This document shows, piece after piece, positions 3,742 through 39,024 of a DNA stretch of 64,000 bases. Under the pieces are notes generated by a model, which searched no databases, was not told the origin of the DNA, and saw only the letters and a list, made by a program, of their open reading frames with translations. The position numbers were made by a program, and so were the translations under genes. Each line of letters starts with the position of its first letter. Position 1 is the stretch's first letter. The stretch is from the IMG/VR virus record IMGVR_UViG_3300009093_000040. One strand, 5' to 3'. This stretch comes from a virus (lineage: Duplodnaviria > Heunggongvirae > Uroviricota > Caudoviricetes).

Positions 3742-4122
3742 TTATTTTTTTCTTGATACTTCTATATGTGATATTGCTAATAGTTCAGTGTAACTTAAAT
3801 GTGGATTAAATAAAAGTTTTCCATCTACTTTAAAACCTTCCATCACCTCGTGCTCAACGGTTAATTTAAATGCAAGAAATAAAGTTTTGATAACTTCATC
3901 TTCAGTCATGTGCTCAGACAAATAAAACTTACGTCCGTGCCAGTTTTCTAATTTCTTTGATTTGTTGCATTTAGCTTTGTAAATTATTTGTAAGAACACT
4001 CTACCTTTTGTTTTGTAAACGTTATCACGTTCCACGCGTATCTCAAATTTTTGTTCAAATAAACCGCAACTTACTCTTTTGCAAATTGCTTTAGCATTTT
4101 CAAGTATTAAGTCTTTTTTCAT
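3742..4122 (-). CDS. Conserved hypothetical phage protein
   Basis: WHGRKFYLSEHMTEDEVIKT...EHEVMEGFK segment recalls a widespread phage family; overlaps the RT stop. Confidence 0.65.
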   Translation of the reverse strand: MKKDLILENAKAICKRVSCGLFEQKFEIRVERDNVYKTKGRVFLQIIYKAKCNKSKKLENWHGRKFYLSEHMTEDEVIKTLFLAFKLTVEHEVMEGFKVDGKLLFNPHLSYTELLAISHIEVSRKK

Positions 4123-5071
4123 TTTGAAGTAGTTTTTTCATTAAGTTTTTACCATTACAGTGTACAACCCATCCTTTATAAGCAGCAACCGAGGATGTTC
4201 TGTAATTTCTTTTCAACATTTTTGCAAAACGTTTTTTGATTCGTTTTCTAAGTAAAATATGAGTGTGGTAGAATTTGTAACCTACAAAATCAATTCCTCT
4301 TGCTTTAACTGGAAATATTTGCCAATTTTTCTTTATCTCTAGTTTTAAATTTTCTCTCAAATAAGCTGATATTTCAAAAAATAACTCTCTAAGGTGTTCT
4401 TTACTATGAGATAAAATTACTATATCATCAGCATATCTAAAATAATGTTTTACTTTTTTATTTTCTTTAATCCGGTGATCAAAATATGCAAGATAAAAAT
4501 TAGCAAAATATTGTGAAAGATAATTACCTATGGGAACACCGGGTGCAGAATCTATTATTTCGTCTAAAAGATTTAGTAAATCTTTATCTTTAATTTTTCG
4601 ACGTAATAAAGTTTTCAAAATCTCATGGTCGATATTAGGATAAAATTTTCTTATATCTAATTTTAAACAGTATTGAGTGCCTTCTACATCTAATAATGAT
4701 TTTCTAACTGCACGTAAAGCAGCATGAATTCCTTTGTTTTTTATACAACTATAAGTGTCGCTTGTAAATGTTGAAACAAATACAGGTTCCAAAAAATTCA
4801 TGATTGCATGATGAAGTATTCTATCTGGAAAATAAGGAAGGCGAAATATTTCACGTTCCTTTGGATCATAAATTTTAAAAACACTATAAGGAGATGTTTT
4901 ATAAGTTTTATTTACCAACATTTCATTCAGCTTTAAAATATTTTCATCACGCATTTTATCATGCTTAATTACTCCTGCTTGAAATTGCTTACCTTTTCTA
5001 GCTTTTTTATCAGCTAACAATAAGTTTTCAATAGTGCAAATATTTTGAAATATATCTTTTATTCGTTTCAT
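4100..5071 (-). CDS. DGR reverse transcriptase
   Basis: LKLDIRKFYPNIDH, GVPIGNYLSQ (DGR-type GxxxSQ) and YFRYADD catalytic motif; about 323 aa from ATG 5071 (track start 5089 is TTG). Confidence 0.95.
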   Translation of the reverse strand: MKRIKDIFQNICTIENLLLADKKARKGKQFQAGVIKHDKMRDENILKLNEMLVNKTYKTSPYSVFKIYDPKEREIFRLPYFPDRILHHAIMNFLEPVFVSTFTSDTYSCIKNKGIHAALRAVRKSLLDVEGTQYCLKLDIRKFYPNIDHEILKTLLRRKIKDKDLLNLLDEIIDSAPGVPIGNYLSQYFANFYLAYFDHRIKENKKVKHYFRYADDIVILSHSKEHLRELFFEISAYLRENLKLEIKKNWQIFPVKARGIDFVGYKFYHTHILLRKRIKKRFAKMLKRNYRTSSVAAYKGWVVHCNGKNLMKKLLQNEKRLNT

Positions 5072-5140
5072 TTTTTCCTTTGCTTTCAAAGTCGTTTTCG
5101 TCCTTAGCTTACTAACGCCTTCTTTTTAGCATTTATTTTT

Positions 5141-5154
5141 TTGCCTAGAGGCAA
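5141..5154 (-). other. Hairpin in DGR spacer RNA between TR and RT
   Basis: TTGCC-TCTA-GGCAA followed by an A-run on the minus strand. Confidence 0.55.
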
Positions 5155-5185
5155 GGTCTATGTTACTTGTTTTAAAAGCAAATTA

Positions 5186-5706: not shown

Positions 5707-6162
5707 TTAAGGATTATGGTGTTCTTTATATTCTTCTAAAAATTGAGTTCCGGCATATTTAGCAAGTTCGGCTGATTTTAGGACGAGGAGGGAGCCGACA
5801 GAAGAATCAGTATGCCAATAGTAGTAGTACGCATAGGAAAAGCCATCCCTAGTCATTTTGAAGCATGGTTCATATTTATACTCATTGTTATTATTGTAAT
5901 CAGGTTTCCACCCTTCATTAAGTGCTCTTACTATAATTTTGAGTTTCTTATACGCAATTTCATCTTTTGTGTCTAATGTATTGTTTGTAATCTGTGTAGG
6001 ATTTATACCTAACTCTCGACATGCATCACTAAATGTTTTTACTCTGTCGGTTACTTTTTGTGGAGCTTCCACAATGTTTTTTAAAACGAGTAGTCTTTCT
6101 TCAAAAACGAGTAGTCTTTCTTCAATCGTTTTAATTTCCTTTTTTGCTGCTTCTTTATCCAT
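5707..6162 (-). CDS. DGR target protein 2 (151 aa)
   Basis: Contains VR2; extra N-terminal coiled-coil-like segment. Confidence 0.9.
   Translation of the reverse strand: MDKEAAKKEIKTIEERLLVFEERLLVLKNIVEAPQKVTDRVKTFSDACRELGINPTQITNNTLDTKDEIAYKKLKIIVRALNEGWKPDYNNNNEYKYEPCFKMTRDGFSYAYYYYWHTDSSVGSLLVLKSAELAKYAGTQFLEEYKEHHNP
5790..5845 (-). repeat. DGR variable repeat VR2
   Basis: 56-nt alignment to TR with 9 mismatches, all opposite TR adenines. Confidence 0.95.
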
Positions 6163-6177
6163 TTTTGTTTTTTTTTA

Positions 6178-6612
6178 TTATGTTAAACGTAATTCACTTA
6201 ATCCTAGTTTAATTGCTTCTGCTGGGTGATCAGTTACCCAGCTGTGGCAGTTATGACATCCAGCCATGAAGGTGGTATCATCTAAATAATATTTTCCTCT
6301 CCCTTTTTTATGGTGCACTTCAGTTGCTGTATTGGTACAATCTTTCAAATTCATTTGACAAAAAGGATGATTCTTTAAAAATTGTTTCCTCAAAATGGAA
6401 TACAACACATCTTCCTTTTCTCTTTTTGAAGATCGAGGGCGTATAGGTTTTTGCCTATTGTTTGTTGGTTTACCGTTATTCGTATCGTTTTGGCAACTCT
6501 TACTTTTATAACAGCTTTGGCAATACCTTTTACGCTCCTCGCCTTCAATTACATTTTTCCAGATTGGTTTATCTTTCTGGCAACCGTCACACTTTTTTAA
6601 TTTAATTTTCAT
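6178..6612 (-). CDS. Zn-finger/HNH nuclease-like protein
   Basis: N-terminal CxxC...CxxC; C-terminal ATEVHHKKGRG...CHNCH HNH motif. Confidence 0.7.
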   Translation of the reverse strand: MKIKLKKCDGCQKDKPIWKNVIEGEERKRYCQSCYKSKSCQNDTNNGKPTNNRQKPIRPRSSKREKEDVLYSILRKQFLKNHPFCQMNLKDCTNTATEVHHKKGRGKYYLDDTTFMAGCHNCHSWVTDHPAEAIKLGLSELRLT

Positions 6613-11160: not shown

Positions 11161-11179
11161 GTGATGGTTTATTAGTTTG

Positions 11180-11256
11180 TGTATAAGACGAGACTCGAAC
11201 TCGTACCCCTGAGTAATATTTCTATTATAATGCTATACCAGTTTAGCTACTTACAC
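11180..11256 (-). ncRNA. tRNA-like element with a degenerate anticodon arm
   Basis: Acceptor GTGTAAG/CTTATAC, D arm GCTA/TAGC, T arm ACGAG-TTCGAGT-CTCGT; anticodon region is a TAATA-GAAA-TATTA hairpin with no 7-nt loop. Confidence 0.7.
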
Positions 11257-17971: not shown

Positions 17972-18042
17972 CGCTATGTGTTTTTTATTGCAGGGCTAAA
18001 TTGCTCACCGCACTACAAAGATAACACTTATTTTGAAAAAGC

Positions 18043-18350
18043 AAAAAGCCCCTACTATTATTCGGGGCTAATTGTTTACGCTGCTAAACGTTCTCTGCGT
18101 TTAGAAGTGCGGCATGCGTTTCTGTAATCAGAAAGGCTAACCACTTTTGCTTTGTTGTCTTTTATCTTTTCGTATTTCTATTTCCTATAACTACCACACC
18201 CTGTCAAAACCGGTCGAGCCCATAGTTTGTGCCTTGTGCAAAACAAGGACTAATAAACAATCAGGTAACTACGCCACAACTGCTATTTGTGGACCCGGAG
18301 GGATTCGAACCCTCGTCCAAAAGCGCTGTTAAAGAACGTCAAACAAAATA
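18043..18350 (-). ncRNA. ssrA: Circularly permuted (two-piece) tmRNA
   Basis: The 3' acceptor piece GGAC-GAGGG-TTCGAAT-CCCTC-CGGGTCC-A (18316-18290) precedes the 5' piece GGGCTCGACCGGTTTTGACAG (from 18221); G3.U70 pair; a frame ending LAA-stop (TAA 18078-18076); terminator AGCCCC/GGGGCT-TTTT; TACATTTG promoter at 18363-18356. Confidence 0.8.
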
Positions 18351-18388
18351 CAGAACAAATGTAATAAAAATTGTGTTACTTTTGTATA

Positions 18389-23252: not shown

Positions 23253-23990
23253 TTATTGTTTTTTTGATTTAATAAAAATTACAGGCAGCAAAAATAACAC
23301 TAATACTCCAGCTGAAAAAGCAATATCTGTAGTATGACTATTTAAAATTGGCGTAACAACATTTCCGGGTATATAGTCGCACACTCCTGATAACATCAGT
23401 TTTACACCTAATATCGCAATTACGATAAATGTTATCTTTTCGAGGAAAGGATACTTCTCAAGCAGTTTAATGAAGCCCTGAGCTACAAAACGCATGGCAA
23501 GTATACCTATGAAAACACCTACACAAATCAATCCTATTTTATCAGTAAAGGCAACTATAGCAAAGATATTATCTATAGAGAAAGTTAGGTCCATTAATTC
23601 TACAAGTACAACTGTGGTCCAGAATACACCCAATCCTGCTTTTAATCTTTTGAAAATAATGTTACCTTCTTTTTCTATTTTCTCTTCAGCTTCAGCAGCC
23701 TCCTTTTTAAAGAAAAATTTAAAAGCTAACCAGCATAGGTATGCTCCACCAAGTATTTTCAACCATAGAATTTTTATAAGCCATGATGCAAACAGTAAAC
23801 ACGCACCTCTCAATATATAGGCTCCTATAATACCATACTTTAAAGCTTTACTACGTTCGTTTGCAGGAAGATCCTGAACCATTGCTGCAAGTACTGCTGC
23901 ATTATCCACCGATAAAAGGCTCTCGATCAAAATTAAATTTAGTATTATAAAAATACTGGCTCCGAAATCTGTTCCAAAAAGTGCTTCCAT
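23253..23990 (-). CDS. terC: TerC family membrane protein
   Basis: LIESLLSVDNAAV...ALKYGIIGAYILRG...ELMDLTFSIDNIFAIVA. Confidence 0.9.
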   Translation of the reverse strand: MEALFGTDFGASIFIILNLILIESLLSVDNAAVLAAMVQDLPANERSKALKYGIIGAYILRGACLLFASWLIKILWLKILGGAYLCWLAFKFFFKKEAAEAEEKIEKEGNIIFKRLKAGLGVFWTTVVLVELMDLTFSIDNIFAIVAFTDKIGLICVGVFIGILAMRFVAQGFIKLLEKYPFLEKITFIVIAILGVKLMLSGVCDYIPGNVVTPILNSHTTDIAFSAGVLVLFLLPVIFIKSKKQ

Positions 23991-23991
23991 T

Positions 23992-24249
23992 TTATTTTTT
24001 AATTGGTTGTTTTACGTAATGATTTTTAAGTTGAGGCGCATATTCTAGTATAGCTTCTATTTGTTTTTTACCCACATTGTATCTTGTTGGTATTAAATCA
24101 TGAAGCAACAATACAATTGCATGCTCACTAAGCCCTGACTTTTTTATTTTTTCAAAAGCCTCTGACACCTGAATAATTGACTGGGCAATTAGCTCAGCTG
24201 GTTCTGGATTTTCTTCGTTTGTTTTAATTTTCGGTGCCATATTAATCAA
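23992..24249 (-). CDS. Hypothetical protein
   Basis: 85-aa ORF in the ter cluster. Confidence 0.6.
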   Translation of the reverse strand: MINMAPKIKTNEENPEPAELIAQSIIQVSEAFEKIKKSGLSEHAIVLLLHDLIPTRYNVGKKQIEAILEYAPQLKNHYVKQPIKK

Positions 24250-24958
24250 TCAAATTGTGTTGTTTAGCTAACTTCAACCAGTCCGGAAACTCTCCAAATA
24301 ATTTAGAATAAAGATCATTATCTGAAGCTCTGCTAAGATCAGGTAGTTGGAAAAAGTTTGCATTATCAATTAATCTTCCATCTAACGAATCAAGCTCTTT
24401 TAAAAATCTGAAAGATGCTGCACCTATACCTACGAATTGAAAGAATACACCGTGGTTAGAAATATCTCTCAATGCTTTTTTAGTTTCAGAATGATCTCCA
24501 TTTTCACCATCTGTTATGAAAATAACATATACAGGGAGTTTTAATTTATTTGCTTTTTTACCAAAACCTAGTTTACTTAATAAACCACCACCTTGTGTAT
24601 AATCACTTTTTATTTTCTCAATAGGAGGAGCATAATTAGTGCCACCAAAATTGTAATGACCAATTATTTCGTGATTAACAATACCTTCTACGTTTTCAAC
24701 TGTAACATTGTTTTTATGTTTTTTACAACTGCTTTCAAAAAGATATAATTCGAATTCTTGATTATCGTCAAATTGCATAGCAACCGGCACAATTCTTTCC
24801 AATGTGTCCTGAACATCACCACGGCGATATAAATCATCCATCGACATGGATATATCCATACATAAAACTACTTGTGCTTTCTGATTCTCAATTCCTTTAC
24901 CTTTTATAAGGTTAAAGATCATTTCCTTTCGAAGATTTAATTTATTTAAGTCTATCAT
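24242..24958 (-). CDS. vWA domain protein (ter-associated)
   Basis: MIDAS DISMSM, GGTNYAP, VIFITDG, FFQFVGIG, DGRLIDNANFF. Confidence 0.85.
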   Translation of the reverse strand: MIDLNKLNLRKEMIFNLIKGKGIENQKAQVVLCMDISMSMDDLYRRGDVQDTLERIVPVAMQFDDNQEFELYLFESSCKKHKNNVTVENVEGIVNHEIIGHYNFGGTNYAPPIEKIKSDYTQGGGLLSKLGFGKKANKLKLPVYVIFITDGENGDHSETKKALRDISNHGVFFQFVGIGAASFRFLKELDSLDGRLIDNANFFQLPDLSRASDNDLYSKLFGEFPDWLKLAKQHNLID

Positions 24959-24963
24959 ACGTT

Positions 24964-25797
24964 TTATTTTAATTGCTGTTTTATATAGTTTAAGTTTAGC
25001 GCGTAATCTTCAATTTTGTGATAACCATTTCCTATTGCATTATGATAAAGTGTATGCACAAAAGAATGCTTTTGATATTGAATAAAAATTTTACACTCTT
25101 CATGATTTGCATTCAGAATATATTTGATCACTCGGGTATTCATCAAATACTCTTCGTTCTTAATTATTTTATCAAGACAATTTAAGTTTTTAACGAAGTA
25201 ATAATTCAAATAGTTTTCTATGTTAGGATTTGCTTTTGTTCCTTTAAGCTCTGCGAAATACAAGAAGTAATGTGCCATGTGTTCAGTTAATTCGAACTTG
25301 TGTAACATATTTAATATTCTGTGTTCATGAGCTCCGGTGATGATTATATCATCTAAAAATAAACAAATCTTACCTTTAATGAAGTTAGCATCCACATAGA
25401 AGTCATCGTTTGCCATCACTGCGAATCTTTCTTCCTTATTCATTTCACCGTATTCTTCCTTATAAGAAGACCTGCGATATATTTTGCATTCCATTACAGG
25501 CTCGCAACTTTTCTTTATTAATTCGGCATTTAAAACGCGAATAAAATAATCTTTCATTGCAAAGGTGGCTGTAGGTATGTGCACAAAAGGAGATGATAAA
25601 ACTACAATTCTAGTTTCTGTCCCGTGACAAAGTGAAACAATTTCTTTAAATTGTTTATTGGCAATAAATTTTTGAGCAAGCTCTGTTCCAAATTTTCTGG
25701 CTGCATCTTTACAGCCGAATTTGAACTTGCTATACTCTGTAGGATCAAATCCTAAATCGTTTTTATTAGTAAATGTATATGCTGAAAACTTATTCAT
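24964..25797 (-). CDS. Phosphoribosyltransferase-like protein (ter-associated)
   Basis: PRPP-binding loop CLFLDDIIITGAHE. Confidence 0.75.
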   Translation of the reverse strand: MNKFSAYTFTNKNDLGFDPTEYSKFKFGCKDAARKFGTELAQKFIANKQFKEIVSLCHGTETRIVVLSSPFVHIPTATFAMKDYFIRVLNAELIKKSCEPVMECKIYRRSSYKEEYGEMNKEERFAVMANDDFYVDANFIKGKICLFLDDIIITGAHEHRILNMLHKFELTEHMAHYFLYFAELKGTKANPNIENYLNYYFVKNLNCLDKIIKNEEYLMNTRVIKYILNANHEECKIFIQYQKHSFVHTLYHNAIGNGYHKIEDYALNLNYIKQQLK

Positions 25798-25800
25798 GCT

Positions 25801-26499
25801 TTACAAAAGATCTTTAATTGTTTTTCCACTGTTGGAATTAATATGAAATGAATCCATTTTTATACGATTAGCACCAGCTATATCTGCAACCAGACTATCA
25901 CCTACGTGAATTATGTCCTGCATTGTAATAGGATTATGTATTCTATAACCTATAGTTTTATTTATCAAAGCTAAAAAAGGAAGCTCTGAAGGTTTAGATG
26001 CATTTATTTCATCCGAATAAATTTGAAAATCTATAAGGTTGTGTAAATCATTTTTAAGTAAACCCATTCGTAAAGTGGACCCTCTTAGAAAAGCTGTATT
26101 AGAAAGTATTGATATGCTACAACCTCTTCTGTGTTTTAATTCAAACAAAGTAGGGATAGTGCTGTCATCAAATGGAGTTGCCGGGTATTGTAAGAATAAT
26201 TTTTCCATCAATAAATAAATGCCTTGTATATCTCTGTAACTAAAATCATCCATTGGATAACCAAGTTTGTGTAACACCATTGTGTACATTTCAAAGGCAT
26301 CTATATTATTACCGACTACTCGGTTTATCAAATCAACCAAATCATCTACTTCCTTAAAAATTAATTTAATTTGGTCAATAGTTTTTTTACCACGATTAAA
26401 ATGGTCGTGGAAATGTTCGGCTCTATATTGCTTAAATCTAGGATCAGATTTAATCAAGGTCTGCCATAAATCAAAAGAGTAGTGTTTATATTGCTTCAT
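25801..26499 (-). CDS. HAD-superfamily hydrolase
   Basis: SFDLWQTLI motif I, ILSNT, SKP, HVGDSLVADIAGA. Confidence 0.85.
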   Translation of the reverse strand: MKQYKHYSFDLWQTLIKSDPRFKQYRAEHFHDHFNRGKKTIDQIKLIFKEVDDLVDLINRVVGNNIDAFEMYTMVLHKLGYPMDDFSYRDIQGIYLLMEKLFLQYPATPFDDSTIPTLFELKHRRGCSISILSNTAFLRGSTLRMGLLKNDLHNLIDFQIYSDEINASKPSELPFLALINKTIGYRIHNPITMQDIIHVGDSLVADIAGANRIKMDSFHINSNSGKTIKDLL

Positions 26500-34483: not shown

Positions 34484-34515
34484 TTTGGTGAATTAAAATT
34501 TAAAATATATCTTTG
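34484..34515 (+). promoter_or_regulatory. Promoter P1 of tRNA block 1
   Basis: TTTG (34484-87)-N20-TATCTTTG (34508-15), matching the Bacteroidota sigma-A consensus. Confidence 0.8.
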
Positions 34516-34522
34516 TCCCATC

Positions 34523-34600
34523 ATGAAAGTAAAAAATTTATATAGTCTTCTATCGTTGAGTTATTCGTTACCAAGCGATGAGGGGATTACTATGAGTTAA
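34523..34600 (+). CDS. Leader peptide 1 (Leu/Ser/Tyr sensor) MKVKNLYSLLSLSYSLPSDEGITMS
   Basis: 25-aa ORF between promoter and terminator; 12 of codons 6-18 are L, S or Y. Confidence 0.85.
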   Translation: MKVKNLYSLLSLSYSLPSDEGITMS

Positions 34601-34627
34601 ACTTTAAAATTTTAGTTTGAACAAGTT

Positions 34628-34662
34628 AAACCCTCAGCGAAACACTGGGGGTTTTGCTTTTT
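34628..34662 (+). terminator. Attenuator terminator 1
   Basis: AAACCCTCAG-loop-CTGGGGGTTT then TGCTTTTT; the 5' arm CCCTCA can alternatively pair with TGAGGG (34579-84). Confidence 0.85.
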
Positions 34663-35040: not shown

Positions 35041-35113
35041 GGGAGTATCATCACCAACGGTAAGTATTCAGTCTGTAAAACTGCTAATCTAGGTTCGATT
35101 CCTAGTACTCCCA
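35041..35113 (+). tRNA. tRNA-Tyr(GTA), short variable arm
   Basis: GGGAGTA/TACTCCC acceptor, loop CTGTAAA, canonical T arm, weak D stem. Confidence 0.75.
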
Positions 35114-35168: not shown

Positions 35169-35198
35169 TTTGTATATTAAAAATAAAGTTTACATTTG
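35169..35198 (+). promoter_or_regulatory. Promoter P2 of tRNA block 2
   Basis: TTTG (35169-72)-N18-TACATTTG (35191-98). Confidence 0.75.
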
Positions 35199-35218
35199 CA
35201 GAAGTTAAAAACTAGAAA

Positions 35219-35320
35219 GTGCAAAAACAAATCGTCATAACAGGAATTTGGAATATGGAGAATACCGCGGGTAAAAGAGACTGTGCGTATGGGGCTTCTG
35301 CTTTTCGTTTTAGAGATTAA
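35219..35320 (+). CDS. Leader peptide 2 (13-amino-acid sensor) (M)QKQIVITGIWNMENTAGKRDCAYGASAFRFRD
   Basis: GTG start after an A-rich stretch; codons 5-23 use only and all of the 13 amino acids of the downstream tRNAs. Confidence 0.8.
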   Translation: MQKQIVITGIWNMENTAGKRDCAYGASAFRFRD

Positions 35321-35344
35321 AATTTAAAACATAAAAAGGTAAAG

Positions 35345-35377
35345 GAGCCCGGCACAAAATGTCGGGTTTTTTGTTTT
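35345..35377 (+). terminator. Attenuator terminator 2
   Basis: AGCCCGGCA-CAAAA-TGTCGGGTT then T-tract; GGAGCCC can alternatively pair with GGGCTTC (35292-98). Confidence 0.85.
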
Positions 35378-35616: not shown

Positions 35617-35621
35617 CATAT

Positions 35622-35757
35622 GCGTCGGAAACATTGACGGTGATGTATGCAGGTTCTTTTTGAATTTGTAAGGTGTGATAATTTTACAAAGGAGATGCTT
35701 AGGAATAATCAACCTAAGTTTGAGTTGGCAAAGCAGGTTCGAGTCCTGCCTGATGCA
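35622..35757 (+). ncRNA. tRNA-shaped RNA with multibranched insert replacing the anticodon loop
   Basis: Acceptor GCGTCGG/CTGATGC, D arm ACAT/ATGT, T arm GCAGG-TTCGAGT-CCTGC; about 80-nt insert with TTTGTAA/TTACAAA and CTTAGG/CCTAAG hairpins. Confidence 0.7.
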
Positions 35758-35760
35758 CGA

Positions 35761-35834
35761 GGGGAAGGTCGTTGGTTCGAATCCAACATTGCCGCTGAAA
35801 GGTGGCGATTAGCTCAGCTGGCTAGAGCAGCCCC
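35761..35834 (+). ncRNA. Circularly permuted tRNA-like module with GAAA-capped acceptor stem
   Basis: 3' half (AGGTC-GTTGG-TTCGAAT-CCAAC-ATTGCCGCT) precedes GAAA, then the 5' half (GGTGGCGAT-TA-GCTC-AGCTGGCTA-GAGC-A-GCCCC). Confidence 0.75.
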
Positions 35835-35839
35835 GCGTT

Positions 35840-36142
35840 ATTTGAAATATTGGTTGAGTGTAGTTACTACAGAAAGTCGGTGAGAAAAAGAATCTGCGAG
35901 ATTTGACCCGATGAAATAGAAACTTTGAACGAAATTCAATTTTGCTCCTGTTGATTGATTTTCTAGTATGTCTTCAGAAGTTGATAAAACTTTCAGGGGT
36001 GGTACCAGATCGAAAAGCACGAAAGTTTAATTGTATTAAGAGTAGTTTAATGAGACTTTCTTAGGATATTTTTTCTGTACGGGAAAAAGAAAATATGCAA
36101 ACGTACACGCGTATTCTACAAAAAACACTCAACCAAACAAAT
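35840..36142 (+). ncRNA. Large structured ncRNA domain (GOLLD/ROOL-like candidate)
   Basis: 12-bp closing helix TTGGTTGAGTGT (35850-61)/ACACTCAACCAA (36125-36) enclosing several hairpins; lies in a phage tRNA array. Family assignment unverified. Confidence 0.55.
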
Positions 36143-36217
36143 TGGTAAATAGCTCAGCCCGGTTAGAGCGCCACGCTGATAACGTGGAGATCGATGGTTC
36201 AAATCCATTTTTACCAA
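36143..36217 (+). tRNA. tRNA-Ile(GAT)
   Basis: CCACG-CTGATAA-CGTGG. Confidence 0.9.
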
Positions 36218-37281: not shown

Positions 37282-37656
37282 ATGAGTAAGACTAAGAATA
37301 AAAAGCTCGGTATGAATGTTAGTACCGCGAATAATAGATTAAGAAAAAAACTTCTTTTTCATTTTGCTAAACTTTTAGGTTTAGATGATTGTTACAGATG
37401 TCATAAGAAGATAAAAAACCTTGAAGAATTTTCTATAGAGCATAAAGAATCTTGGATGAGTTCTAAAAATTCTTTGGATAAATTTTTTGATTTAGATAAT
37501 ATTGCTTTTTCTCATTTGATTTGTAACATTAAGTTTGAACGGATTAAAACAGGAGTAAAACACCCTTCGCATAGGGCATATAACCAAGGGTGTAGATGTG
37601 ATGGTTGTAAGAATGTAGAAAAAGAACGTAGAAGGAGTCAACGTCAAAATAAATAA
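37282..37656 (+). CDS. HNH endonuclease
   Basis: CYRC...FSIEHKESW...DNIAFSHLICN. Confidence 0.75.
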   Translation: MSKTKNKKLGMNVSTANNRLRKKLLFHFAKLLGLDDCYRCHKKIKNLEEFSIEHKESWMSSKNSLDKFFDLDNIAFSHLICNIKFERIKTGVKHPSHRAYNQGCRCDGCKNVEKERRRSQRQNK

Positions 37657-37757: not shown

Positions 37758-37788
37758 TTTGTAGTGTAAAAAACTATTTATAGATTTG
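37758..37788 (+). promoter_or_regulatory. Promoter P3 of tRNA block 3
   Basis: TTTG (37758-61)-N19-TAGATTTG (37781-88). Confidence 0.8.
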
Positions 37789-37792
37789 TCGC

Positions 37793-37873
37793 ATGAAAAA
37801 TATTACTTTACATCAATTTCCGTTTCAGTTTCGCCCGGTAGGAGCGAAGGGGAATGGTTGTATCCGGATGTAA
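37793..37873 (+). CDS. Leader peptide 3 (His/Gln/Phe/Pro/Arg sensor) MKNITLHQFPFQFRPVGAKGNGCIRM
   Basis: 26-aa ORF; codons 7-15 read HQFPFQFRP. Confidence 0.85.
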   Translation: MKNITLHQFPFQFRPVGAKGNGCIRM

Positions 37874-37897
37874 ACTAAAGTTTATCAAAGATATTCG

Positions 37898-37932
37898 AAG
37901 CCCCTTCTGAAAAGTTGGGGCTTTTGTTTTTT
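37898..37932 (+). terminator. Attenuator terminator 3
   Basis: AAGCCCC...GGGGCTT then TTGTTTTTT; CCCCTTC (37901-07) can alternatively pair with GAAGGGG (37846-52). Confidence 0.85.
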
Positions 37933-37941
37933 GAAATATTT

Positions 37942-38014
37942 CGAGATGTAGTTCAGTTGGTAGAATACGTGCTTTGGGAGCATGGGGTCGTCGGTTCGAG
38001 TCCGGTCATCTCGA
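37942..38014 (+). tRNA. tRNA-Pro(TGG)
   Basis: CGTGC-TTTGGGA-GCATG, C1-G72. Confidence 0.9.
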
Positions 38015-38017
38015 CTA

Positions 38018-38165
38018 AATTGTTGAAACGGGGTAGCGCCGTTCTTAGCGTAATCGCGTATGGTCCCATTGAGTTGGGGACAATAAGTCCATACGGTAAA
38101 GGCTGTCAAAAATGGGGAAGAGAAATCTTAGTAAGAAGGTTTACCGATGCAAGTTCGGAACAATT
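38018..38165 (+). ncRNA. Unassigned structured RNA (about 150 nt)
   Basis: Closing AATTGTT/AACAATT; internal CGTATGG/CCATACG, TTCTTA/TAAGAA and a CCGA-TGCAAGT-TCGG T-arm-like hairpin. Confidence 0.5.
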
Positions 38166-38171
38166 TAATTT

Positions 38172-38243
38172 GGAGCCATAGCTCAGTAGGTAGAGCAGCA
38201 GACTGAAAATCTGCCCGCACTGGTTCGATTCCAGTTGGTTCCA
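38172..38243 (+). tRNA. tRNA-Phe(GAA)
   Basis: GCAGA-CTGAAAA-TCTGC. Confidence 0.9.
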
Positions 38244-38304
38244 CTTTTATTTTTTTTTTTTGAATCTAAATTATAGATTCAAAATTTATTTTTATTTTTG
38301 TACT

Positions 38305-38703
38305 ATGAAATTATGTACAACATGTAAAATAGAAAAAGACGAAAGTGAGTTTAATAAAAATGAAAGGCAAGGAATTCAAAGTAAGTGTAGGTCTTGTAAC
38401 AGTGAATATCTCAAAAATCATTATAAAAACAACCGAAAATATTACATAGATAAGACAAAAAATAGACGTAAAAGTATAAGAAAATTTATTAATTCTTTGA
38501 AATTAAAATGTGTACGATGCCCTGAAAATCATATAGCTTGTTTAGATTTTCATCATCTATCGGATAAAGATATAAACATTGCTGACCTTGTTAATTCGGG
38601 AGCATCAAAAGAAAAAATATTGCAAGAAATTTCTAAATGTGTTGTTCTTTGTTCAAATTGTCATAGAAAACTTCACTATAATGAAAGAAAAATTGTCTCA
38701 TAG
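38305..38703 (+). CDS. HNH endonuclease
   Basis: CxxC repeats, CLDFHH...ISKCVVLCSNCHRKLHY; ATG 38305 after TATTTTTG; stop lies inside tRNA-Gln. Confidence 0.8.
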   Translation: MKLCTTCKIEKDESEFNKNERQGIQSKCRSCNSEYLKNHYKNNRKYYIDKTKNRRKSIRKFINSLKLKCVRCPENHIACLDFHHLSDKDINIADLVNSGASKEKILQEISKCVVLCSNCHRKLHYNERKIVS

Positions 38704-38765
38704 TGTAAAGGCAACATGTCTGGTTTTGGACCAGAAGATTACAGGTTCGACCCCTGTTGAGATAA
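38694..38765 (+). tRNA. tRNA-Gln(TTG)
   Basis: TCTGG-TTTTGGA-CCAGA. Confidence 0.9.
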
Positions 38766-38767
38766 CT

Positions 38768-38840
38768 GGGGCTTTTCGTCTAATGGTTAGGACGCTTGCT
38801 TGTGGAGCAAGAAATTTCGGTTCGAATCCGTGATAGCCCC
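38768..38840 (+). tRNA. tRNA-His(GTG)
   Basis: G-1/C73, CTTGC-TTGTGGA-GCAAG. Confidence 0.9.
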
Positions 38841-38849
38841 CAGACATAT

Positions 38850-38921
38850 TCCAACGTCGTCTAATGGACAGGACACAGGGCTACGGACCTTGGGGTGGGA
38901 GTTCGATTCTCTCCGATGGAA
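38850..38921 (+). tRNA. tRNA-Arg(ACG)
   Basis: CAGGG-CTACGGA-CCTTG. Confidence 0.9.
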
Positions 38922-39024
38922 CTTATTATCAACAAAACATTAAAATAGTATTTTGTGTGTTAAAACTATTTTTTGACATCAAAAATATTATTATATACAT
39001 TTGGACAATCTTAAACCAACAAGA

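Follow-up and report, generated by a model that had tools for sequence, protein, structure and literature searches.

Probable ribosome-mediated attenuation of a five-tRNA block in a crAss-like phage by a leader spelled in the codons of those tRNAs

Introduction

It is debated why phages carry transfer RNA (tRNA) genes and what controls them; proposals include matching of codon usage, degradation of host tRNAs and evasion of defences that cut tRNAs. The tRNA array considered here lies in a 64,000-nucleotide (nt) stretch of viral DNA, IMG/VR record IMGVR_UViG_3300009093_000040 (hereafter the window, with positions counted from its first letter). One part of this array, termed unit 3, consists of a promoter, a short open reading frame (ORF), a hairpin followed by a T tract, and genes for five classes of tRNA. 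A sequence-only reading had taken unit 3 for a transcription attenuator with a leader peptide tuned to those tRNAs. Here, we conclude that unit 3 is probably a ribosome-mediated attenuator of the trp/ilv type, which gates the five-tRNA block. We infer translation of the ORF, the transcription start, the coupling of ribosome to polymerase and the direction of the switch from the sequence.

The window comes from an uncultured crAss-like phage of soil; its ORF 48346–49971 matches the Pfam family Crass_capsid. Among sequencing runs, a full-length match to the stretch was found in one rhizosphere metagenome only, while soil runs contain variants. ARAGORN detects 23 tRNA genes on the + strand between ~34.6 and 38.9 kb, and Rfam detects one further tRNA at 35041–35113, with a loop reading GTA. 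A lone tRNA-Ser with anticodon AGA (11179–11256, – strand) lies far from the array on the opposite strand.

Results

The unit 3 leader lists the tRNAs that follow it

Unit 3 contains the following features, with tRNAs identified by ARAGORN and Rfam:

37758–37788, + strand: Bacteroidota-type promoter, TTTG (–33), 19-nt spacer, TAGATTTG (–7)
37793–37873, + strand: leader ORF of 26 codons, ATG AAA ... TAA, translated as MKNITLHQFPFQFRPVGAKGNGCIRM, then stop
37811–37837, + strand: control run HQFPFQFRP, codons 7–15, CAT CAA TTT CCG TTT CAG TTT CGC CCG
37942–38015, + strand: tRNA-Pro (tgg)
38172–38244, + strand: tRNA-Phe (gaa)
38305–38703, + strand: HNH-like ORF within the block (132 amino acids, Cys/His-rich; the Cys/His motif was read by eye)
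38694–38766, + strand: tRNA-Gln (ttg)
38769–38841, + strand: tRNA-His (gtg)
38850–38922, + strand: tRNA-Arg (acg)

The leader ORF lies between the promoter and the tRNA genes. Its control run encodes exactly the five classes found downstream (Pro, Phe, Gln, His and Arg(acg)), with none other and none left out, and its Arg codon belongs to the CGN box, as read by the ACG anticodon. All nine codons are tied in this way to the regulated genes, just as the sequence-only reading had proposed. These five classes make up 15% of codons in the phage's own usage. The probability of a run of at least nine such codons in a 25-codon ORF is 7e-7 under a null based on phage codon usage and 2e-6 under one based on nucleotide composition. 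In a six-frame scan of the 64-kb window, 37811–37837 was the single longest run of its codon set, with a runner-up of 7.

Could this arrangement be a coincidence, with an ordinary terminator or insulator separating tRNA sub-operons and a small ORF lying in front of it by chance? Short ORFs are abundant in AT-rich DNA. The promoter search pattern, TTTG-N17-21-TANNTTTG, has four + strand matches, ahead of the three tRNA units and of genes past the array, and its window-wide count (7 seen versus 4.55 expected) is not significant alone. Against coincidence, however, stand a P value of ~1e-6 for unit 3 by itself, the top rank of its run across six frames, the same rank for the run of sister unit 1 (see below), and recurrence of the pattern with other amino-acid sets in four other phage lineages. 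We therefore give this explanation next to no weight.

The –7 box ends 4 nt ahead of the ATG, and hence the leader 3 mRNA is probably leaderless or nearly so. A TAnnTTTG box stands 4–7 nt ahead of several ORF starts. In the window, these are the starts of leaders 1 and 3 and of the HNH-like ORF (box-to-start spacing at 34515–34523, 37788–37793 and 38300–38305); elsewhere, they are those of leader A of locus L085 and leaders P1 and P3 of Cellulophaga phage phi4:1, both described below. The box suggests that these phages make leaderless mRNAs.

Sister units 1 and 2 match their own tRNA blocks

Two further units precede unit 3 in the array:

34484–34654, + strand: sister unit 1, with promoter, leader ORF 34523–34600 and terminator 34628–34654
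35169–35366, + strand: sister unit 2, with promoter, GTG-initiated leader ORF 35219–35320 and hairpin 35348–35366 plus T tract, then 15 tRNAs

The run of leader 1, LYSLLSLSYSL (34538–34570), stands ahead of tRNAs for Leu(tag), Leu(taa), Ser(gct) and Ser(tga) and of the tRNA with a GTA anticodon. It covers both Leu and both Ser codon boxes and ranks first in length for its codon set in the six-frame scan of the window. For leader 2, the GTG start was taken from the sequence-only reading of that unit and then checked. Codons 5–23 of this leader specify 13 amino acids, namely the 12 carried by the 15 tRNAs that follow (including AGA for Arg(tct)) plus Ala. Although the run contains 2 Ala codons and the ORF as a whole 4, neither ARAGORN nor Rfam found a tRNA-Ala in the window; tRNA-Ala is present in the matching block of L085 and of phi4:1. 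A 530-nt gap at 35617–36143 contains tRNA-like arms and odd structured RNA beyond the resolution of ARAGORN and Rfam.

The three runs of the window share no codon box and jointly cover all 20 amino acids. Units 1 and 2 each match their own tRNA block and not the other's.

Leaders follow the partition of tRNAs in other phages

The strongest line of evidence is comparative: the way in which tRNAs are partitioned into blocks differs between phages, and the leader sequences follow. Of three distant relatives on uncultured contigs (L085, L042 and L130), L085, identified by a marker protein 52% identical to that of the window, has two units. One leader, YLCSRLSFWYR, stands ahead of tRNAs for Phe, Tyr, Ser(tga), Trp, Cys, likely Ser(gct) (by eye), Leu(tag), Arg(acg), Leu(taa) and Arg(tct). 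The other, AQHITPMAINQVEGKDP, stands ahead of those for Pro, Ala, Gly, Asp, Asn, Ile, Val, Met, Lys, Met, Glu, Thr, Gln and His. In L042 and L130, a leader in which 7–8 of 24 codons are Cys or Trp precedes tRNA-Trp and tRNA-Cys.

The cultured Cellulophaga phage phi4:1 (NC_021788.1) is distant from the window phage, with a capsid-protein match of 30% identity over 27% query cover, and has three units (L168:3066–3196, 4026–4170 and 5772–5926). Here, QRLHLQELEQP stands ahead of tRNAs for Pro, Glu, Gln, His, Leu(tag), Leu(taa) and Arg(acg); TKTGITVIDKTKGARA ahead of those for Ala, Lys, Ile, Gly, Met, Asp, Thr, Val, Arg(tct) and Met; and NYCTYNNSNWSFSY ahead of those for Tyr, Ser(tga), Ser(gct), Asn, Trp and Phe. 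The leaders of phi17:2 are near-identical to those of phi4:1 and add no variation. In the public records of these two phages, no leader is annotated as such. One phi4:1 (L168) coding sequence, gp075 (3990–4109), overlies leader ORF P2, and the other leaders are unannotated. Another, gp076 (6118–6219), overlies a tRNA-Ser(tga) that ARAGORN reports at a relaxed threshold. A repeated promoter sequence is found ahead of leaders P1 and P2.

We scored each leader against each block in a 9 × 9 matrix, and the own block gave the top score for every leader. For unit 3, the score (–log10 P) was 5.6 for its own block and ≤1.0 for the other eight. Within each genome, the true assignment of leaders to blocks exceeded every permutation. 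Codon boxes used for Leu, Ser and Arg in the leaders also fit the anticodons, with AGA paired with tct, CGC/CGT with acg, TTA with taa and CTA with tag. All nine units share the same build (promoter, ORF, strong hairpin plus T tract, first tRNA), and six of the nine leaders start with ATG AAA. A strand able to compete for the terminator arm starts 1–12 nt past the last control codon in 8/9 units. The earlier proposal of an attenuator tuned to the downstream tRNAs is thus supported both by the run statistics and by comparison between genomes (the sister units, L085, L042, L130, phi4:1 and phi17:2).

How widespread is this layout? A blastn search of the array against deposited phages gave scattered tRNA matches only and no close relative. 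A flanking protein of 148 amino acids led to L002, which has a near-identical array, to L003, which has a variant of leader 1 only, and to several array-less contigs. A marker protein of 277 amino acids identified 160 loci in IMG/VR and JGI metagenomes, at identities of up to 56%, nearly all of them without an array at the site; five large relatives have 0–2 tRNAs across the whole record. A back-translated pattern of the nine-codon run had no match in IMG/VR. Single tRNAs (Thr, Met, Tyr) in L007, L014, L028, L126 and L143 have no such leader, indicating that the layout is not universal. Phage Phass-1, which uses code 15, has its tRNAs dispersed between other genes.

The run stays conserved as other parts of the leader peptide change

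Natural variants of unit 3 were found in L002 (93% identity in the flanking protein) and in a soil contig from run X5. In L002, the ORF remains open and the changes are a synonymous one at N3 plus T5S, L6V and C23Y. Unit 3 there follows an unrelated inserted gene, with the –7 box, ORF and terminator intact, suggesting that it behaves as a self-contained module. The X5 contig has one change within the run, CAG to CAA, which is synonymous, together with V16R, G17S, R25L and a TAA to TAG change of the stop codon; positions 37887–37941 are unchanged. Across the three variants, then, the run shows one synonymous change only, the remaining codons show six replacements, the stop is kept and, in both L002 and X5, the terminator is invariant. 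These data suggest that what counts is the codons rather than the peptide, with the caveat that the sample is small and the depth of the X5 contig only 2.6.

These patterns bear on whether the run is read by a ribosome at all. Its triplets might instead act as RNA, each being a specifier bound by a tRNA anticodon, somewhat as in T-box leaders, where a specifier is coupled to a terminator/antiterminator pair. By definition, the run offers triplets complementary to the anticodons. However, no match to the T-box or any other Rfam family was found at the gathering score or at E values up to 1. In every unit, moreover, the triplets share the reading frame of a start codon (ATG or GTG) and of a conserved stop, which the X5 variant preserves through its change to TAG, and the recurrent ATG AAA start points the same way. 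Nine adjacent triplets, finally, could not each hold a tRNA simultaneously. We consider this explanation very unlikely and favour translation of the leader.

Between tRNA-Pro and tRNA-Phe, the spacer (38016–38171, 157 nt) is kept in L002, closed by a 9-base-pair helix and folded with z = –2.4; Rfam has no family for it. The tRNA-Phe gene itself (38172–38244) differs strongly from its L002 counterpart (L002:9527–9600), while the adjoining leader, tRNA-Pro and spacer are almost identical, which suggests replacement of the tRNA-Phe gene between the window and L002.

Predicted folds of unit 3 contain the three pairings of the trp model

To the features of unit 3 given above, folding adds three predicted RNA elements:

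37820–37857, + strand: protector (1:2 pairing), with a core hairpin at 37829–37849 over the F-R-P codons (–9.1 kcal/mol; extended, –17.1 kcal/mol)
37846–37907, + strand: antiterminator, GAAGGGG (37846–52) with CCCCUUC (37901–07), closing a small structured domain
37897–37932, + strand: intrinsic terminator, 8-base-pair GC-rich stem 37897–37904/37917–37924 (–15.7 kcal/mol), then T tract TTTTGTTTTTT

The terminator separates the leader ORF from tRNA-Pro, the first regulated gene, and its end is 9 nt from that gene. It is absent from the output of a simple terminator scan, as its loop exceeds the limit of that scan, and was established by folding. The unit 3 leader folds with z = –3.5. In the minimum free energy (MFE) fold, TTCGCCC (37830–36) pairs with GG.GCGAA (37841–48), the hairpin predicted in the sequence-only reading. 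The antiterminator strand, 37846–52, is held within the 37820–57 pairing of this ribosome-free fold, such that the protector covers control codons and sequesters GAAGGGG. With GAAGGGG so held and the terminator formed, the fold has an energy of –46.6 kcal/mol, versus –28.7 kcal/mol with the antiterminator forced.

To mimic a ribosome, we masked nucleotides up to 13 nt beyond the A site. With stalls at codons 8–14 and nascent RNA extending to the terminator loop, GAAGGGG folds on CCCCUUC in a domain of –18.4 kcal/mol. With stalls at F11–F13 and the complete transcript, the two states are isoenergetic (–22.4 versus –22.5 kcal/mol), and hence the structure formed first should persist. A ribosome placed at the stop, or anywhere beyond codon 17, covers GAAGGGG and leaves the terminator as the sole option in the constrained folds. 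All of the predicted strands (GAAGGGG, CCCCTTC, and AAGCCCC/GGGGCTT plus T tract) were found in place, and the 1:2, 2:3 and 3:4 pairings each appear in the constrained folds in the order of the trp model.

A model for unit 3

These observations are consistent with the following scheme. Host RNA polymerase would start at the Bacteroidota-type promoter, and a ribosome would load at the AUG, which would lie at or just inside the 5' end. When decoding of Phe, Pro, Gln, His and Arg(CGN) codons is fast, the ribosome would pass codons 7–15, move over GAAGGGG and reach the stop at 37871. GAAGGGG would thereby be covered and the 5' arm of the terminator left free, such that the terminator would form and transcription would end before tRNA-Pro. 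If no ribosome were present, the protector would keep hold of GAAGGGG and the terminator would form too. Slow decoding of any of the five codon classes would stall the ribosome in the run and melt the protector. GAAGGGG would then pair with CCCCUUC before the 3' arm of the terminator is made, allowing polymerase to read into the tRNA genes. The new tRNAs would relieve the stall, amounting to negative feedback on the decoding capacity that these same tRNAs supply. Given that the leader is spelled in the five amino acids of those tRNAs, the phage probably makes them only when the corresponding codons are read slowly.

Weighing the model

Several observations weigh against this scheme or limit its reach. 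First, the fold states occur in the right order, but they are not hard to obtain: when the spacer 37838–37896 is shuffled, 23% of the sequences match or exceed the native spacer in pairing with the G+C-rich terminator arm, and 5.8% give the full three-state behaviour (combined p over the nine units, 0.01). Because some shuffled spacers behave alike, the structure of unit 3 is compatible with the model but is weak evidence alone. The three pairings of the trp-like set put forward in the sequence-only reading do appear in the folds, in the order of the model, while the antiterminator is only weakly significant by shuffling. Second, the antiterminator never exceeds the terminator in stability, meaning that switching has to be kinetic. 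The outer long-range helix of the MFE fold is, in addition, disrupted in the variants. Third, the leader ORF has no Shine-Dalgarno sequence, as expected for Bacteroidota, and its run contains one codon each for His and Arg, which implies low sensitivity to a mild shortage of either. Fourth, a T run follows tRNA-Phe in the window, and the inserted HNH-like ORF has its own TATTTTTG box, 4 nt ahead of its ATG; these features may leave Gln, His and Arg partly independent of the attenuator. Fifth, no diverged homologue of unit 3 was found among the loci of the 277-amino-acid marker. Finally, RNA runs matched the stretch over a few words only, and the four soil runs compared with it are DNA contigs.

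The shuffling result leaves room for another possibility, namely that the leader is translated and senses decoding by the tRNAs of its block, but that the output is something other than a terminator switch. Candidates are Rho-type polarity, protection or processing of the precursor RNA that depends on the ribosome, and a switch of reverse polarity in which a stall lowers tRNA output. The codon match speaks for sensing and is silent on output, the antiterminator draws little support from shuffling, and in simple folds units B, C, P2 and P3 pair with the terminator arm even when ribosome-free. On the other hand, a strong hairpin plus T tract stands directly before the first tRNA in 9/9 units, the three fold states of unit 3 follow the classical order, and the position of the competing strand just past the run recurs in all but one of the units. 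We regard an output of this other kind as unlikely, and prefer terminator-based attenuation.

Insertions in the array and other features of the window

A second ORF within the tRNA array, 37282–37656, encodes 124 amino acids. Neither it nor the HNH-like ORF (38305–38703) has any Pfam match, and L002 contains neither: there, the tRNAs on either side lie next to each other, or another ORF, of 61 amino acids, fills the position. The two are probably mobile insertions.

Elsewhere in the window, a permuted transfer-messenger RNA (tmRNA) gene is located at 17985–18383 (– strand; ARAGORN tag peptide, Rfam tmRNA_permuted 57.7 bits), which places a ribosome-rescue RNA alongside the putative stall-sensing leaders. 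A reverse transcriptase ORF (4100–5158, – strand; RVT_1, E 3e-20) adjoins an RT-17 RNA motif (Rfam, 43.1 bits), and together they may represent a diversity-generating or other retroelement. A Ter-like stress cluster at 23253–26499 (– strand) contains TerC, vWA-TerF-like, PRTase ComF-like and HAD hydrolase genes consecutively.

Discussion

Multivalent attenuators are well known in enterobacteria, where ilvGMEDA responds to Ile, Leu and Val and thr to Thr and Ile; trpL, hisL, pheL and leuL are further examples of such leaders. Like ilvGMEDA, thr and trpL, unit 3 combines a short leader ORF containing control codons with a predicted protector, a candidate antiterminator and a terminator in overlapping register. 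As in the multivalent systems, a stalled ribosome would select the antiterminator, and one leader would sense several amino acids. The differences are equally clear. The genes downstream of the unit 3 leader are five tRNA genes rather than genes for amino-acid biosynthesis or a synthetase, making unit 3 an attenuator-like variant and not a classical member. It follows too that the molecule sensed by these phage units would be their product. Phage leaders list 5–13 amino acids, mostly once or twice each, whereas enterobacterial leaders use tandem repeats of one to three. The phage units also have a Bacteroidota-type promoter, are probably leaderless, and show no sequence relationship to the enterobacterial attenuators.

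Two other systems come close in function. In E. coli, pheST, a gene set of the translation apparatus, is under attenuation by the pheM leader peptide, and unit 3 resembles it in that cognate codons would control a component of the decoding machinery. However, pheM controls the synthetase for one amino acid, while unit 3 would control tRNAs themselves, five together. T-box riboswitches likewise sense tRNA status through a terminator/antiterminator switch upstream of translation-related genes, but they bind uncharged tRNA directly, without translation, via a conserved Stem I and T-box sequence, for which unit 3 gives no Rfam match. The closest parallels are the units of phi4:1 and phi17:2, which share with the window both the layout and the rule that a leader lists its block, and differ in leader sequence and in how amino acids are partitioned.

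A full-text literature search found no account of leader-peptide control of tRNA genes. One candidate paper was set aside, as it mentions a tRNA operon only in a different context. The mechanism proposed here is that of a classical attenuator; what is new is the target (tRNA genes), the number of amino acids per leader (5–13) and the setting in phages and Bacteroidota.

More speculatively, the three leaders of the window may form a modular, on-demand tRNA supply that monitors the whole genetic code, with each block turned on only when ribosomes stall at its own codons. The trigger might be cutting or depletion of host tRNAs by anticodon nucleases or similar defences, or late phage translation outrunning the host pool. 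Such a self-regulating counter-measure could be widespread in Bacteroidota phages, including cultivable ones. We offer this extension tentatively and think it rather less likely to be right than wrong.

If unit 3 works as proposed, the phage would measure decoding speed and make tRNAs in response. Among the reasons suggested for phage tRNA genes, this would favour compensation for a failing host tRNA pool, and it would make that idea directly testable; Cellulophaga phages phi4:1 and phi17:2 have the same layout and grow in the laboratory, which puts the experiment within reach. For annotation, leaders of this type would predict which tRNAs belong to one transcription unit and would flag tRNAs missed by search programs, as the Ala codons of leader 2 may do. 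More generally, RNA genes would join the targets of leader-peptide attenuation, Bacteroidota and their phages would join its range, and a single peptide would sense as many as 13 amino acids.

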